Below are positions 25,801 to 30,960 of a DNA stretch of 32,000 bases, one piece after another (the stretch's first letter is position 1; each line of letters begins with the position of its first letter). The position numbers were made by a program, and so were the translations under genes. The DNA is from Telmatocola sphagniphila (GTDB taxonomy: Bacteria; Planctomycetota; Planctomycetia; Gemmatales; Gemmataceae). The notes under the pieces were generated by a model. That model worked only from the letters and a program-made list of their open reading frames with translations. It was not told where the DNA came from and made no database searches. The DNA lies in NCBI RefSeq assembly GCF_018398935.1, contig NZ_CP074694.1:3840001-3872000 (forward strand), written 5' to 3'.

Positions 25801-28800
25801 GTCGAGAGCATTCCAGTATTCGAGCTCTTGCAGGCCAGCGTTATCCACGGTCTTATAAGTTCGCCCCAGTATGTCGGCGTATTTAGCGGAAGTAAAGCCT
25901 CTGGCGTCGAGAACAAACGATACGTCTGTCAATTCGTTCGTGCTGTACTGAGTGCTATTTGCGTAGGCATCGGTCGATTTTTGCAACTGACCGTTGCCAT
26001 CGTAGGTGTTCGATGAGGCGGTTGTCGGAGTGACTTCAGTCAGAATGTTACCATCGCCATCTTTTGTCCAAGTGGTGACGCCCAGAGATGCAGTTCCTAC
26101 CCCATCAGCTTCCGCCGTGGTTTCGTAAGCGCCGTTTAAGAAGTTATCGACGGTGACTGGATTGGATGTTATCGTCCCGTAGTAGGATATTCCAGAAACC
26201 ACTTGTTCATAATTGCCTGATTTGACGTAGGTAGTGTCGGTCTCGCTAGCTGCGCTAGTCCCAAACCCTGCGATCTGTACGGTTTCGCGAAGATTTGGGT
26301 AGTAAATGGTGTGCGTATCAGAATTTGTCGGGGAGATTGAATCGACTACACGGCCGGAGATGTCCTGCACTGTTGTAGTTGTGGCTGCATCTACTGTACC
26401 GTAGGCCTCGGTAACTGAAGATGACAGGCTTCCGCCGGCGCCTTCGTAAGTATAGTAAGTGACTCTAGCACTCGGGTCGATGCTTTCCAGTAATTGCCCG
26501 CCTGCATCATAGATCGATTGGGTGTAGCGAGTGAGAGGGGCACCCGAGGCATCATAACCTGCTTGGGTCATCAAAGTTGTGCGATCCCCTGGATCGTATT
26601 GGTAATAAGTCTTATTGCCACCAGGGGAATCCACTTCACTGACTTCGCCGTTGGCCCCGTAATAGGTTACGGTTGATCGAGCCAATGAAGTTCCAGCCGC
26701 TTCGATCATGAGCGTCTGTCGCTTATAAGAATCGTAAGAGAAATCCGTATACGATAGATCCGAGGATTCGATCTGAGCCAAAGTGCCGTTGGGATTGTAG
26801 TAGTAGTCGGTGTAATAGCCATTACCATCCTCGGTCCACTCGAGGTGACCGAGGGAATCGTAATAGGAACTGGTGGTTTTTCCAGCCGGGTCTTGATGGA
26901 AAGTAACGAGTTCGTGGGAATCGCGAGTGAATAGTTCGTAATTTCCATCCGCGTAATCGATCTGCGTCGGGTAACCATTACTGTCTAATATATAAGAAGT
27001 TTCTTTCCCATTGGTGTCGGTGTAGCTGGTCATGTCACTATGGGACCAGGTCCAGGATTCCGTATCCCCAATCTGATTAATGGTGTCGGATTTCCGCGCT
27101 CGCAAATCCATCCAGGTTTTGGTGTACTCGCCGTATGAGCCAGTTGGTGTCGTAATCGCGACGGGAGTTCCTTCTAGTGCGGTGTCCAGTGCGAAAGTGT
27201 TCGCAGGCTCTAGAGAGTAGCCGATCCCCGCGCCATCCGTACTGCCTTCTCCTTGGCCCGATCCAGGATCGTATGTGTAATTGGTTGTGTAAGGGCCGTT
27301 CTGAATGGCGGTGAGTTCGTGAGCCGCTCCATAACTATAAGAGATGTCATTCCCCGGACTTCCTAAAGTGTTGATGACATAAATCGAAGTCAAGGAATCG
27401 CCGCTGTGAGCTACAACATAGTCATGTGATGAGGTCTGAATGCTGCTGAGTTCATCTCCGGAATAGTTGAAATAGGCCGTGGTCCCATCAAGTGTAGTAA
27501 TGGTTTGAATAGAGTCCGCTCGTCCATCGCCGGTAGCGTCTCTGTAGGTGACGTACAATTGTTGATTAGCCGCATCCAGTCCGTACCAATTAGTTTCCAT
27601 GCCAAGCGAGTTGAAAAGCGTTTCGGAGCCATCGGGAGCAAGGTAAGTAAAGGTTTTTCCGGAACCACTTCCAAAAGAGGTCAATTTGCCGTGGTCGCCA
27701 TCCATGCCATCAACGTAGCTTTCGGGGCCAGTTCCTGTACCTGTCCCGGTGCCAGAGTCTTGCAATTCGAAGAATCGCCAGCCGCCGTTGCCGTAGACCC
27801 TCAGTTCACCCGCGGGGAGCATGGGAGGTGGGGAATACGTACCAGATCCGGATCCGGTTCCCGTGCCACCCCCTCCGCTTCCTCCTCCGCCACCACCCCC
27901 GCCGCCACCCGTACCTGTTCCTGTCCCGGTCCCGCCGCCACCGCCGCCATCACCACAGCAACAGCAGCAATCACAGCAACCATCGCTTCCCGTGCCGGTT
28001 CCAGTTCCTGTCCCCGTGCCCGTGCCGGTTCCAATGCTTGTGCCGGTACCTATTCCCGATCCAGTTCCAGTTCCAGTACCGACGGTTACGGGGTTATGAA
28101 CAATTGCGACAACACTCGTGCCTGTACCAACACTACCCGTCCCCGTGCCGGTTCCTGTACCACCACCGCCAGTACCGGTACCCGTTCCTGTACCCGTTCC
28201 AGTTCCAATGCTACCTGTGCCTGTGCCACCGCTTCCCGTCCCAGTGCCGGTCCCCGTCCCTGTTCCGGATCCATGTTCGCAGCAGCAGCAATCGCAACAG
28301 CCATCCCCTCCTGAACCCGTCCCTGTTCCTGTGCCTGTCCCTGTCCCCGATCCACTGCCTGAACCACTTCCGCTGCCCGAACCTGAACCGCTATCCGTGA
28401 CCGTTTCACCGGGAAAATGTACTTGCTCGACCGATCTGATGTGAACGAGTCGATCAATTCCCGCCACGTTCCAACCTGCTCCGTAAGCGTTATTAATCAC
28501 TTCAGGTAATCCAGAGCCTGTTCCTGTACCCGTTCCAGATCCGTGCCCGGCCGGCACGGTTCCGTTTTGAAGCACTTCAACAATTGTTGACCCAACGATC
28601 CGATAAGGTTCTGGAGGGCCACCGGTACCCGTGCCAGTTCCAGTCCCTAAACCAGTACCAGTACCCGAACCTGTTGCAGGATAAGAGTAACTAACATCCA
28701 AGATGTATTGGTATCGGTCTGTCACCGGGACATCCGACGGCACTTGAATGGCGGTCGTGATTGTGTCGCCACCATGGAATGACGAGAGATCCACCGTTTC

Positions 28801-30960
28801 TGTCGTCGAAGAAGCCCAGGTCACCGTCTCGCCCGAACCGGTTCCCGAAGAAACCATTCGGGCATCCCATTCCAAGGTAACGGTCATTGAATCCGGCAAG
28901 ATTTCATTGGACGAGAATGCGACCGGCATTTGGAATGTGTAGTCGATTATCGGGCGTGAATCCACGAAATCGGAATTGTAAACTAATCCGATTCCGGCAG
29001 AATTCGCCGTGCCGGGACTGGTATCCAGGTCGAGAGGATAATTCGCATTTACGTTGCCAGTCTGCGGTCGGGCACTACCGGAGAAGGGATCCCAAGTCAA
29101 TCGATAGGCAGATCCCGGATCTGGTTGTAGGTCGTAGACTTGCGAGCCCGAACCCGAGTCACTGCCACTTCCGCTTCCGGAACTTCCAGTTCCGGTCCCA
29201 GTACCCGTCCCGGAGCCTCCACCGCCTCCTCCCTCGCAACAGCAGCAATCGCAACAACAATCTCCCGTCCCGGTTCCGGTTCCGGTTCCGGTTCCGGTTC
29301 CGGTACCAGTACCAGTACCAGTACCAGTACCACTACCACTACCCGTGCTTACTGGATTATGACTTATAGCTACAACACTCGTTCCCGTGCCTACACTGCC
29401 TGTACCCGTCCCCGTGCCGCCGCCACCAGTGCCAGTTCCGACACTCCCAGTTCCGGTGCCACCGCTCCCCGTTCCCGTTCCCGTTCCTGTTCCTGTACCC
29501 GTACCACACTCACAGCAACAGCAACCGCCAGTCCCGCTACCTACGGTTCCTATGCTAACCTCAGCGGAGCGTTCGCGATTCGTGCTTAATTGACCGTTAA
29601 GCGACAGTAAAACCGTTGGTTTTATGGCTGCCCGTGCATCCATGCGTCCGTTAGGTGTCGATTCGACGATGATTATTGCAGAGACTTGACCTGCAGCGAA
29701 CGTGATCGTGTCGGAGTGGAGTAACGATTTGCCTTGCCCGGTCTGCTCGTAAAGTCGATAATCTTCCCAACGCTTAGCTGTTCCGCTCAGAGTGAAATTC
29801 ACCGTCGAGGCTTGCGAAGGATCGCCCGTTCTCCAGACTAAAAATTCGCCAGTTTTCCCCGAGTTCGTCGTGGGGAACAGGGCCGCCACTCGCGTTGCAT
29901 GCCCCGAACCCGAAGCAGCTAAATCGCTTTGTGTGATCGCTCCTAAGTTTACAGTCGTGGTTACTTGGGTTGTGGTGGAGGATTGACCGAGGAGAGCAAA
30001 AGAAATATTGCTAGCGGCACGGACATTGTTTGTGGGAATTAACGAAATTACTGCTGTATTTTGGCCAATTCCAAAGGAAATGGTCCCTTGGGCCCCATTA
30101 TTGCTGAGGGTTGCGCCGGAGGCCGCAATCGTGAAATCTTTGCCAATTGATGCGGACCCACCCAACTGGAATGCAATACTTCCGGATTGGCTGGGATCAC
30201 CGTCTCGCCAAACCAGAATTGTAGCGGGATTGCTTGCGTTCGATGCATTCCCGTTTATGGTTGCGACATGGAATCCAGGAGTAGGTAAATTCGGGAGATT
30301 TTGATAAACGGACGAAGGGACCGAAGTGCTGGATGAGCCAGAACCTAAACCGGAATTGCCAGTCGGCGTATTCAATGAGGCGTTAGAAATCGGGGAACTT
30401 TGCAAAGGGGCGACACTCGGCGTGGCGCTGAGAGAGGGATTTTGTAACCCAGTCGCTTGCGCTGGAATTGAATTTGCCGATTGATGTAAAGGTCCGCTGC
30501 TGAAAAGAGTGGGAGTCGCAGTCGAATATAGATCCCCAGACCACTGAAAAGGCGTGCTGGAAAGCGGATCAAAGGCTGCACTGGTTCCTGTCGAGTTTTC
30601 CGCTCGAGTGCCAGCGTATGCATTTGCGGTCAGTTCCCAATTTCCAAAGCCGGATTCGCGGAAAAGTTCAACTGAAGAGAAGGTTTGACCTCGATCTGAC
30701 AGTGTAAAGGTGTCCTTCAGGTCCACTGAACTATCAAAACCCAAATCAAAATGCTGCTCCAAACCGCCACTCAGCGGACCATACGCAAAATTACCCAGCA
30801 GCGCTGCTGCAGGGCCACCCACAAAGGCGCTGACCGAATTTCGATCTTCCATCGAACCCAAGCTGGGCTTTAGAATTGGAAATATGAACCGTCGCTTGCG
30901 AGACTGGGGGAAAAATTTGCGTAAGGGTGCTGTCAAAAGCAGAGCAATCAAACGCTTCAT
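22861..30960 (-). CDS. RHS/YD-repeat polymorphic toxin (2,699 aa)
   Basis: Hydrophobic N-terminus [13 protein letters not shown]. Two Calx-beta-like segments ([31 protein letters not shown]; [31 protein letters not shown]). Many YD repeats ([55 protein letters not shown]...). The canonical core boundary [15 protein letters not shown] is followed by a 301-aa variable tail. GGAG lies 9 nt upstream of the ATG. Confidence 0.92.
22864..23766 (-). other. RHS C-terminal variable toxin domain (family not recognised)
   Basis: This is everything after the DPSGL cleavage/boundary motif. GC content drops visibly relative to the YD-repeat core. It contains a histidine-rich motif, [12 protein letters not shown]. 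Confidence 0.7.
27840..28392 (-). repeat. low-complexity module B: (GS)n/(GT)n tracts bracketed by poly-Cys clusters
   Basis: Encodes DSGSGSGS...[17 protein letters not shown]-(GT)[17 protein letters not shown](GT)[14 protein letters not shown](G)n. The Cys clusters lie at 28276-28299 and 27955-27978. Confidence 0.9.
29140..29530 (-). repeat. low-complexity module A: (GT)n tracts bracketed by poly-Cys clusters
   Basis: Encodes GGCCCCECG-(GT)[17 protein letters not shown](GT)11[10 protein letters not shown](G)6-(GT)n(GS)n. The Cys clusters lie at 29506-29523 and 29233-29262. It includes perfect hexamer runs (GGTTCC)x5 at 29272-29301 and (AGTACC)x4 at 29308-29331. Confidence 0.9.

Follow-up and report, generated by a model that had tools for sequence, protein, structure and literature searches.

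In RHS toxins such as RhsA of P. protegens (7Q97) and Tre23/Rhs1 of Photorhabdus (7PQ5), sequence repeats form a shell that closes with an RHS-associated core carrying a DPxGL-type (autoproteolysis) motif, this core is followed by a variable C-terminal domain, and a small open reading frame (ORF) is found downstream of the gene. All these features are also present in a 2699-residue RHS/YD-repeat protein of Telmatocola sphagniphila, a peat-bog planctomycete of the Gemmataceae, which is encoded in the stretch of 32,000 nucleotides analyzed here (NCBI RefSeq assembly GCF_018398935.1, contig NZ_CP074694.1, positions 3,840,001 to 3,872,000 of the forward strand; referred to below as the window). 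The protein differs from the RHS proteins that have been examined, whether solved or in databases, in that none of these has strings of contiguous cysteines (Cys strings) or Gly-Thr (GT) tracts. In the T. sphagniphila protein, these elements are combined in two copies of a previously undescribed module, in which two Cys strings enclose two GT-rich arms and, between the arms, a conserved peptide, the core. A PAAR/VgrG-type N-terminus is absent, the relatives in this subfamily having DUF7948, SBBP and Calx-beta domains.

When considering the pairing of Cys clusters around a Gly-rich arm, the closest functional analogy is provided by the cnidarian minicollagens, in which Gly-rich repeats and a homopolymer spacer are placed between Cys-rich domains at both ends, with these Cys-rich domains serving both as a cystine knot and, through disulfide reshuffling, as a cross-linker (PMC4863159). 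There is no homology. Minicollagens are whole, small eukaryotic proteins, having a Gly-X-Y triple helix and a CX3CX3CX3CX3CC element that is a folded mini-domain, whereas the modules are loop insertions, their arms repeat with a period of two (G-T), and their cysteines are contiguous. Collagen itself is rejected as an assignment because of the repeat period, which is 2 and not that of G-X-Y. By analogy, the modules would functionally most resemble cystine-knotted, Gly-rich fibrous segments.

To our knowledge, bacterial proteins only very rarely contain four or five cysteines in a row, and no role has been established for such runs in bacteria. The eukaryotic cysteine-string protein DNAJC5 has a largely contiguous Cys string, but it is a cytosolic, DHHC-palmitoylated protein with a J-domain, and none of these properties is present here or known in bacteria; a Pfam search finds no DnaJ domain in the RHS protein. 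The module belongs to none of the classes of metallothioneins, thiazole/oxazole-modified microcin (TOMM) precursors, collagens or minicollagens, inteins, SEA domains and cysteine-string proteins, as it lacks at least one defining feature of each. An intein or Hint domain, suggested by the VHN of the core and by the cysteines at the module starts, is rejected because the residue after the HN of the core is Pro in both modules, because there is no Hint/intein hit in Pfam and because the region is of low complexity and unstructured in the models. SEA autoproteolysis (comparing G-T-SVVA with the G|SVVV site) is rejected because there is no SEA hit in Pfam and no fold around the core, and because a Thr precedes the Ser.

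Two copies of a lineage-specific insertion module

The four Cys strings mark both ends of a lineage-specific insertion module of ~110 to 185 residues that is present in two copies (Table 1). The strings hold 25 of the 26 cysteines of the protein (5 in A1, 7 in B1, 6 in A2 and 7 in B2), the remaining one being residue 2385 of the RHS-associated core. Four Cys runs had been reported in the initial annotation of this DNA, and these are found exactly in the ORF translation, at coordinates that were off by no more than one or two codons. At the DNA level, the window has 3 matches to the pattern for CCDCCCC, as compared with 0 in 100 dinucleotide-preserving shuffles.

Each module consists, in this order, of Cys string A, a (GT)n arm, the 17-residue core ending in SVVAI(S/V)HNPV, a second (GT)n arm, Cys string B and a polyGly run. 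The arms are (G-T)n or (G-S)n repeats, with lengths of 35 and 29 residues in module 1 and of 45 and 34 residues in module 2. Between residues 470 and 1080, there are 128 G-[T/S] dipeptides. Beyond the strings, the core and a few Val, Ile, Asp, Glu and His residues, the modules contain only Gly, Thr and Ser. A global alignment (MAFFT) of residues 456 to 612 with residues 856 to 1045 has 112 identities at 157 aligned positions and brings out a series of shared landmarks. These are, at the start, CCCC-E-C/H-G followed by (GT)6-SGG-TGTGS(V/I)GTGT, a variable (GT)n, GGGG and the core, and, after the core, (GT/GS)n, D-x-CCDCCCC-x-G-x-GGGG, (GT)4 and a Gly/Ser-rich tail. The core is identical at 16 of its 17 residues, with S/V as the sole change. 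The earlier description, which had two homologous modules with a conserved core, a polyGly run after the second string and a spacer of ~250 residues, is in agreement with both the alignment and the translation, and the spacer is an ordinary region of that size.

The status of the modules as insertions is apparent from the homologs of the surrounding region. An exhaustive phmmer search with residues 441 to 1100 as the query against 1.84 billion representative proteins gives 46 hits at E ≤ 0.001, 44 of which align only to residues ~600 to 770. This part is a domain of ~130 residues with the motifs TWDPxxG, LDLDxSPG and LVYNSDxVxVRP, which is referred to here as the pre-shell domain. The homologs are distant, with at most 47% identity in the pre-shell domain, and none of the 44 shows a GT/GS tract or, within the region of the match, consecutive cysteines. 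In an alignment of 19 sequences (alignment A1), every homolog segment that spans an insert site runs through without the insert. Module 1 takes the place of the short linker that joins the last Calx-beta-like domain to the pre-shell domain and is absent there in the homologs P0004 and P0041, and module 2, which has a lead-in of 15 residues, is located between two conserved strand motifs that have only ~6 to 10 residues between them in the homologs. Because the homologs lack the Cys strings, the GT tracts and every insert, both modules, together with four GT tracts of smaller size, are lineage-specific insertions, and all of them are in loops or linkers. In the AlphaFold prediction made with alignment A1, the pre-shell domain and the first shell hairpins are confident, and all six GT-rich inserts are between confident strands and have a predicted local distance difference test (pLDDT) score below 50. 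The further GT tracts mentioned in the initial annotation are thus all present, but they are not simply linkers at domain borders, as proposed there, being insertions into inter-strand loops of a pre-shell region that is conserved in other respects.

The module has so far been found in no other protein among the collections searched; it is an orphan, known from a single gene of a single species. In the exhaustive phmmer search of 1.84 billion proteins, no protein matches the modules, and the two weak hits to the GT tracts (P0042 and P0043, 34 to 35 bits) have no Cys strings. In a positive control, the module 2 query finds module 1 embedded in an unrelated sequence with a score of 110 bits (E = 1.5e-26 for a database of equal size), whereas a pure (GT)70 insert is not reported with this query; given this control score, the exhaustive search had the power to detect a similar module. 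A GT-free query made from the strings and cores gives 109 candidates in an index of 5.8 billion clusters, none of them at E ≤ 10. A word-index search with the GT-stripped intervening domain has no matches, and the same type of search with the raw 660-residue region returns 8000 candidates that are swamped by GT words, from which only an uninformative 37-bit match to a GT tract (P0001) emerges.

At the DNA level, a degenerate pattern of the core has 0 matches in the metagenome collection, and two context-specific patterns have 0 matches each in viral contigs. Among the 240 listed matches of the CCDCCCC and DxCCDCCCC patterns (120 from genomes and 120 from metagenomes), 0 have GT tracts, and nearly all of the CCDCCCC matches listed for the genome collection are out-of-frame chance occurrences. 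Neither module matches any Pfam or NCBIfam family at E up to 10. Literature searches on consecutive cysteines or polycysteine in bacteria lead only to the polycysteine leader ORFs of mycobacteria and to vicinal cysteines of the LptD type, and neither is relevant. The searches have in this way given no other instance of the clusters, for which the initial annotation already knew of no counterpart in RHS proteins.

Selection versus slippage

The two modules differ more in their codons than in their peptides. In the stretch of 20 codons from the start of the core (17 of the core and 3 thereafter), there are 10 synonymous and 3 non-synonymous differences, and one of the latter, S/V, is inside the 17-residue core. 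For the module proper, the Nei-Gojobori method gives a proportion of synonymous differences (pS) of 0.73 and a proportion of non-synonymous differences (pN) of 0.11, where the low pN in the pure GT stretches is partly an artifact of the alignment, as any two GT tracts would align in this way. The argument for selection rests on the non-repeat landmarks, which are the strings, SGG...S(V/I)G, GGGG and the core, and these landmarks are not explained by composition. At aligned identical residues, the same codon is used in a fraction of 0.21 (Gly) and 0.26 (Thr) of the cases, and the expectation for independent draws is 0.27 and 0.26, respectively; since the observed fractions equal the random expectation, the synonymous sites are saturated. 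Saturated synonymous sites together with preserved landmarks imply that the duplication is ancient and that the module features are maintained at the protein level by purifying selection. Selection at the protein level is also what the initial annotation had argued for from the varied codon usage in the tracts, where all four Gly codons, all four Thr codons and both Cys codons occur. The contrast between pS and pN argues against neutral slippage as well as against an assembly artifact.

Slippage has nevertheless left its traces. Two adjacent in-frame hexamer arrays, (CCGGTT)5.8 and (GTACCA)6.8, are perfect or nearly so and occupy positions 29270-29343 (minus strand) in the second arm of module 1, and arm length is still subject to slippage there, with the frame unbroken. 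These arrays are in line with a near-neutral origin of the modules, according to which the GT, GS and Gly tracts and the TGY runs would have expanded by replication slippage, without acquiring a specific function, in permissive loops of a toxin gene that evolves fast and may be decaying. The initial annotation had named the complete absence of the clusters from orthologs that retain function as a sign of such expansion, and every detectable homolog, all of them distant, does indeed lack the insertions. A nest of insertion sequence (IS) copies adjoins the gene, the RHS product is missing from a collection of 15 billion proteins that holds its neighbors and may lack an annotation as coding sequence (CDS), and unrelated proteins such as P0042 and P0043 show that GT tracts are inserted sporadically elsewhere. 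Neutral expansion is countered, however, by the conservation between the two modules, as the ordered non-repeat landmarks, the 16/17 identity of the core and the saturated synonymous sites require long-term purifying selection. The ORF is also intact over 8.1 kb, and slippage of GGN-ACN units cannot yield Cys strings, in a protein in which Cys is avoided elsewhere. A near-neutral expansion is considered improbable on these grounds.

The same data bear on the possibility that the region is a sequencing or assembly artifact, or has been read on the wrong strand or in the wrong frame. Repeats of low complexity are prone to assembly errors, and long antisense ORFs overlap the region. The frame is unbroken through six GT tracts, however, and this same frame aligns to homologs on both sides of each tract; the tract codons are heterogeneous and hence assemblable; and contigs from the short reads of SRR14506984 match exactly those parts of the window outside the tract region that they cover, including the part coding for the last 610 residues of the gene product. 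An artifact can be given almost no credence. The antisense ORFs are ruled out as real genes, as the homology flanking each tract fixes the frame.

A possible disulfide-clamped Gly-Thr loop

It is possible that strings A and B of a module form a disulfide clamp, which closes an extended, probably O-glycosylated GT loop that displays the core. This explanation is favored with a rough probability of 0.35. The initial annotation had listed metal binding, disulfide knots, lipid anchoring and a processing or secretion signal without choosing among them; when these functions are ranked, disulfide clamping is placed first and metal binding second, with lipidation or processing being low. The RHS protein would be exported to an oxidizing compartment, where strings A and B of a module would come side by side because the polypeptide exits the fold into the module, and returns from it, at neighboring strands. 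The two strings could then form a multi-disulfide clamp, by which the GT arms would become an extended loop or stalk closed by covalent bonds, and the conserved hydrophobic peptide would be presented at the tip of this loop. The arms would probably be O-glycosylated at G-T/S-X sites, as has been proposed for another planctomycete surface protein, the Kuenenia S-layer protein Kustd1514, whose O-glycans are proposed to attach at GT/SX (PMC5088730). Kustd1514 is from the same phylum, and its proposed sequon is the repeat unit of the arms; it belongs to another planctomycete order, its sites are scattered and not in tandem, and the sequon is proposed and not proven. The strings contain 25 cysteines, which is an odd number, and spare thiols could form intermolecular disulfides with other copies or with the Cys-rich protein wall of Gemmataceae. 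Possible partners are the Cys-rich YTV proteins, which dominate Gemmataceae cell-wall preparations (PMC8567305). Such cross-linking would hold the toxin at the cell surface or set its spacing there.

The paired architecture, with ordered landmarks that are kept in both modules, counts in favor of a disulfide clamp. Because there is a single cysteine elsewhere in the protein, the strings are the only possible disulfide sites, and a Cys-poor composition is common in exported proteins. Module 2 is inserted between strand motifs that are near neighbors in the homologs, and therefore A2 and B2 must be close in space. When module 2 is modeled from its sequence alone, the model is unreliable (mean pLDDT of 36) and without a confident fold; the only backbone bridge of this model is between the residues just before A2 and B2, where the local confidence is also highest, which is a weak hint. 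Independent analogs, L141 and L061 (described below), in which Cys strings directly adjoin Gly-rich fibrous repeats, also agree with a clamp.

Several observations weigh against such a clamp. The N-terminus of the protein (residues 1 to 45, window positions 30850-30960, minus strand) is not a canonical signal peptide, and export is presumed. Contiguous cysteines are sterically unable all to pair with one partner strand, the Cys counts of the paired strings are unequal (5 versus 7 and 6 versus 7), and their total is odd. The modules have pLDDT values below 50 in both structure predictions, and module 1 is in an interdomain linker, the ends of which need not adjoin. No Dsb, glycosyltransferase or other helper gene is found in the 32-kb window, the neighbors being IS copies. 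The homologs function without the modules, so that any function of the modules must be accessory. The Asp and Glu residues inside and beside the strings, finally, suit metal binding at least equally.

It is also conceivable that the strings are metal-thiolate cluster sites with metallothionein-like chemistry, in which the 12 to 13 cysteines of each module, together with the flanking Asp and Glu, bind several Zn(II), Cd(II) or Cu(I) ions. The outcome would be a metal-stapled loop, or an element for metal sensing or scavenging. The very high Cys density with acidic residues in fixed positions agrees with this, as CCDCCCC is found in three strings and a Glu follows three strings, and a cluster could be wrapped jointly by the paired strings. 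The scans also contain a Cys-plus-His-rich analog, L108 (CCDCCDCC...HKKHHKHH). The modules share with metallothioneins the extreme Cys density and a Cys-rich stretch without aromatic residues. Metallothioneins are, however, small, autonomous, cytosolic proteins, mostly with C-X-C and C-X-X-C spacing and not with 4 to 5 contiguous cysteines, whereas the contiguous cysteines of the modules are inside a 2699-residue protein and, as noted, without a family match. A presumed extracellular toxin of 290 kDa makes poor sense for metal homeostasis, and no metal-related genes are nearby in the window. Metal binding is regarded as unlikely, although it is the strongest competitor of the disulfide clamp.

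The composition of the modules, in which Cys, Thr and Ser are mostly preceded by Gly, is also like that of heterocyclisable cores, and each module has one conserved non-repeat peptide, as would be the case for a recognition sequence. Enzymatic modification of the Cys, Thr and Ser residues, either by YcaO-type formation of thiazol(in)es and (methyl)oxazol(in)es or by S-acylation, with the core as the recognition element, has therefore to be weighed. The streptolysin S precursor SagA has a Cys-rich region, Cys24 to Cys32, and designed substrates of the SagA enzymes need contiguous heterocyclisable residues and ~30% Gly; Cys runs mixed with Gly, Ser and Thr are found in the precursors of TOMMs, or linear azol(in)e-containing peptides (LAPs), such as SagA and McbA of microcin B17 (PMC2676033). 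These substrates are short, leader-bearing peptides beside cyclodehydratase genes, whereas the modules are internal loops of a giant protein. The composition of a Cys/Ser/Thr core with Gly is found here, but a leader peptide and a YcaO context are not seen in the window. The 32-kb window contains no YcaO, dehydrogenase, radical-SAM or acyltransferase gene, and Pfam and NCBIfam give no match to a precursor family. We know of no bacterial machinery for internal S-palmitoylation. Modification of this kind is judged to be very unlikely. In a related proposal, which is a long shot, each module is a self-contained substrate in the style of peptides that are made by the ribosome and modified after translation (RiPPs), with SVVAI(S/V)HNPV as an internal, leader-like recognition element, and a YcaO-type or other RiPP-like enzyme, or a glycosyl- or acyl-transferase, may make rigid poly-azol(in)e or otherwise modified segments.

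The case is unusually clean, as it has two diverged copies, purifying selection, mapped insertion sites and relatives without the inserts. A disulfide or metal clamp that closes glycosylated GT loops, or a tether to the Cys-rich wall, would if true add a novel means by which polymorphic toxins are decorated and anchored, with the clamped loop as a simple and portable design, and if the strings are enzymatically modified, RiPP-like chemistry would be known from large proteins as well. For now, the module is a single-gene, single-species curiosity, and its value is that of a well-defined target for mass spectrometry.

The host protein, its neighborhood and other cysteine strings

The RHS gene is the largest ORF of the window and runs on the minus strand from position 30960 to position 22861. 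Its product consists of an N-terminal region, module 1, the pre-shell β-sandwich domain, module 2, the RHS shell and the C-terminal variable domain, in this order (Table 1).

Table 1. Features of the RHS gene, its insertion modules and the adjoining ORF (positions in the window; residue numbers refer to the RHS protein)
Feature	Position	Strand	Basis or detail
RHS/YD-repeat protein gene, 2699 aa	22861..30960	-	ORF list and translation, family matches
Module 1, aa 478-585: A1, 35-aa GT arm, core, 29-aa GT arm, B1, G6	29206..29529	-	
Cys string A1, CCCCEC, aa 480-485	29506..29523	-	translation
Conserved core 1, 17 residues, aa 521-537	29350..29400	-	translation, module comparison
Cys string B1, (D)CCCDCCCC(E), aa 567-576	29233..29262	-	cysteine stretch aa 568-575 = 29236-29259
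G6 after string B1	29215..29232	-	translation
Pre-shell β-sandwich domain, aa ~620-795	28576..29103	-	44 homologs, alignment, AlphaFold
GT-tract loop insertion, aa 705-712	28825..28848	-	within pre-shell domain; alignment A1
GT-tract loop insertion, aa 762-781	28618..28677	-	within pre-shell domain; alignment A1
GT-tract loop insertion, aa 807-817	28510..28542	-	absent from site-spanning homologs in alignment A1; between confident strands
Module 2 with GS lead and polyGly tail, aa 858-1040	27841..28389	-	alignments, model
Cys string A2, aa 886-896	28273..28305	-	CCDCCCC, aa 888-894 = 28279-28299
Conserved core 2, 17 residues, aa 942-958	28087..28137	-	translation, module comparison
Cys string B2, aa 993-1004	27949..27984	-	CCDCCCCC, aa 995-1002 = 27955-27978
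Gly-rich tail G6-(TG)4-G10-S-G4 after string B2	27856..27948	-	translation
GT-tract loop insertion, aa 1067-1078, first shell hairpins	27727..27762	-	alignment A1, AlphaFold
RHS shell, aa ~1049-2400, closing with RHS-associated core	23761..27816	-	Pfam, NCBIfam, P0004 alignment
C-terminal variable (presumed toxin) domain, aa 2401-2699	22864..23760	-	without family match
134-aa ORF QVL30238.1, hypothetical; candidate immunity protein by position only	22452..22856	-	downstream of RHS gene

The assignment to the RHS family follows from the repeats that form the shell and from the RHS-associated core before the variable C-terminal domain. Pfam RHS_repeat matches six stretches of the protein (2.3e-45), NCBIfam YD_repeat_2x (TIGR01643) matches it at 3.4e-32, and Rhs_assc_core (TIGR03696) is found at residues 2320 to 2398 (8.1e-15). 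The full-length homolog P0004 (2672 residues) has 28% identity across 1430 residues of the shell; its domains are, in order, DUF7948, SBBP, Calx-beta, the pre-shell domain and RHS, such that Calx-beta, pre-shell domain and shell follow each other as in the T. sphagniphila protein. The homolog P0041 aligns to solved Rhs shells, for example 7Q97. The C-terminal domain of ~300 residues that follows the DPxGL-type motif has no family match in Pfam, and neither has the 134-residue ORF, which begins 5 nucleotides past the RHS stop codon; these two may form a novel toxin/immunity pair.

The N-terminus of the RHS protein resembles a basic stretch plus an 'LEDRxLLSA' motif, which we take to be usual at the start of large planctomycete extracellular proteins. 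The N-terminus of P0041, which has been set beside this type of motif, carries LELLEARELLSG (start region …RRTRSFTPTLELLEARELLSG). The intact RHS product, with either M1 or M37 as the start, is not on record in the 15-billion-protein collection that holds its GenBank neighbors, and the exhaustive search of 1.84 billion representative proteins gives no self-hit. The gene probably lacks a CDS annotation in the public record, and the insertions could perhaps be the reason why it might stand there as a pseudogene.

In at least 44 proteins (P0002-P0047), the pre-shell domain is found immediately before the RHS shell, and among these only P0002 has a taxon label, Gemmataceae, the others being unlabeled metagenome proteins. 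No Pfam family covers this domain, as checked in P0004, and a Foldseek comparison of the model with the PDB yields only generic Ig-like/β-sandwich matches, none of them at E ≤ 0.001. It seems to be an undescribed 'pre-RHS' domain family.

Beyond the RHS gene, nothing is found in the window other than IS genes, hypothetical ORFs, a gene for a dienelactone hydrolase and a fragment of an endonuclease V gene. Three copies of a 3.49-kb IS are 100% identical, at 3408-6899 (plus strand), 8865-12356 (minus strand) and 13455-16943 (plus strand), and partial copies are found at 16944-18157, 18316-18518, 18679-19036 and 21166-22195; together, the copies fill ~19 kb directly downstream of the RHS/immunity pair. 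The IS encodes a DDE transposase of 413 residues (rve, Mu-transposase C-terminal) and an AAA_22 ATPase of 266 residues, and the IS proteins are present in GenBank in three identical copies each (QVL30214/22/26 and QVL30215/21/27). A 165-residue ORF at 8369-8866 (plus strand) matches only positions 19 to 145 of the Endonuclease V model, which has 198 positions; the ORF stops at the IS edge at 8865 and looks as if it has been truncated by the insertion.

Cys strings beside Gly-rich repeats are also seen in two collagen-like proteins. L141 (metagenome contig Ga0315283_10419447, minus strand) has a lipoprotein-like N-terminus, (NT)n, GPAGPAGPTGPQG, a collagen-like run that ends in a Cys string, and T9, and L061 (Eubacteriales metagenome-assembled genome [MAG] CAZJGG010000092) has DCCDCCDCCDCCDCCCC (DCCDCC...CCCC), followed by (GAT)n/(GPT)n. 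They are like the modules in that the same type of Cys string is directly beside a Gly-rich fibrous repeat, and unlike them in having one string, G-X-Y repeats, no core peptide and unrelated host proteins. By analogy, this suggests that a Cys knot next to a Gly-rich fiber is a recurrent solution, and collagen-like proteins of prokaryotes may repeatedly have made use of a Cys/Asp string beside the repeats as a cystine-knot device. Dense Cys strings are further found in the C-terminal tails of two Streptomyces proteins, L048 and L118 (…CECCDCCCCGDC), and other real-looking ORFs with Cys strings are L015 (Sarcina MAG, small and Gly/Cys-rich), L002 (Tyzzerella MAG, 357 residues) and the small L108 mentioned above. 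P0042 (215 residues) is a pilin-like protein with a prepilin-type hydrophobic N-terminus and a GT/GS-rich insertion of ~45 residues, and it is an example of the sporadic presence of GT tracts, as inserts in loops, in other bacterial proteins that are secreted.

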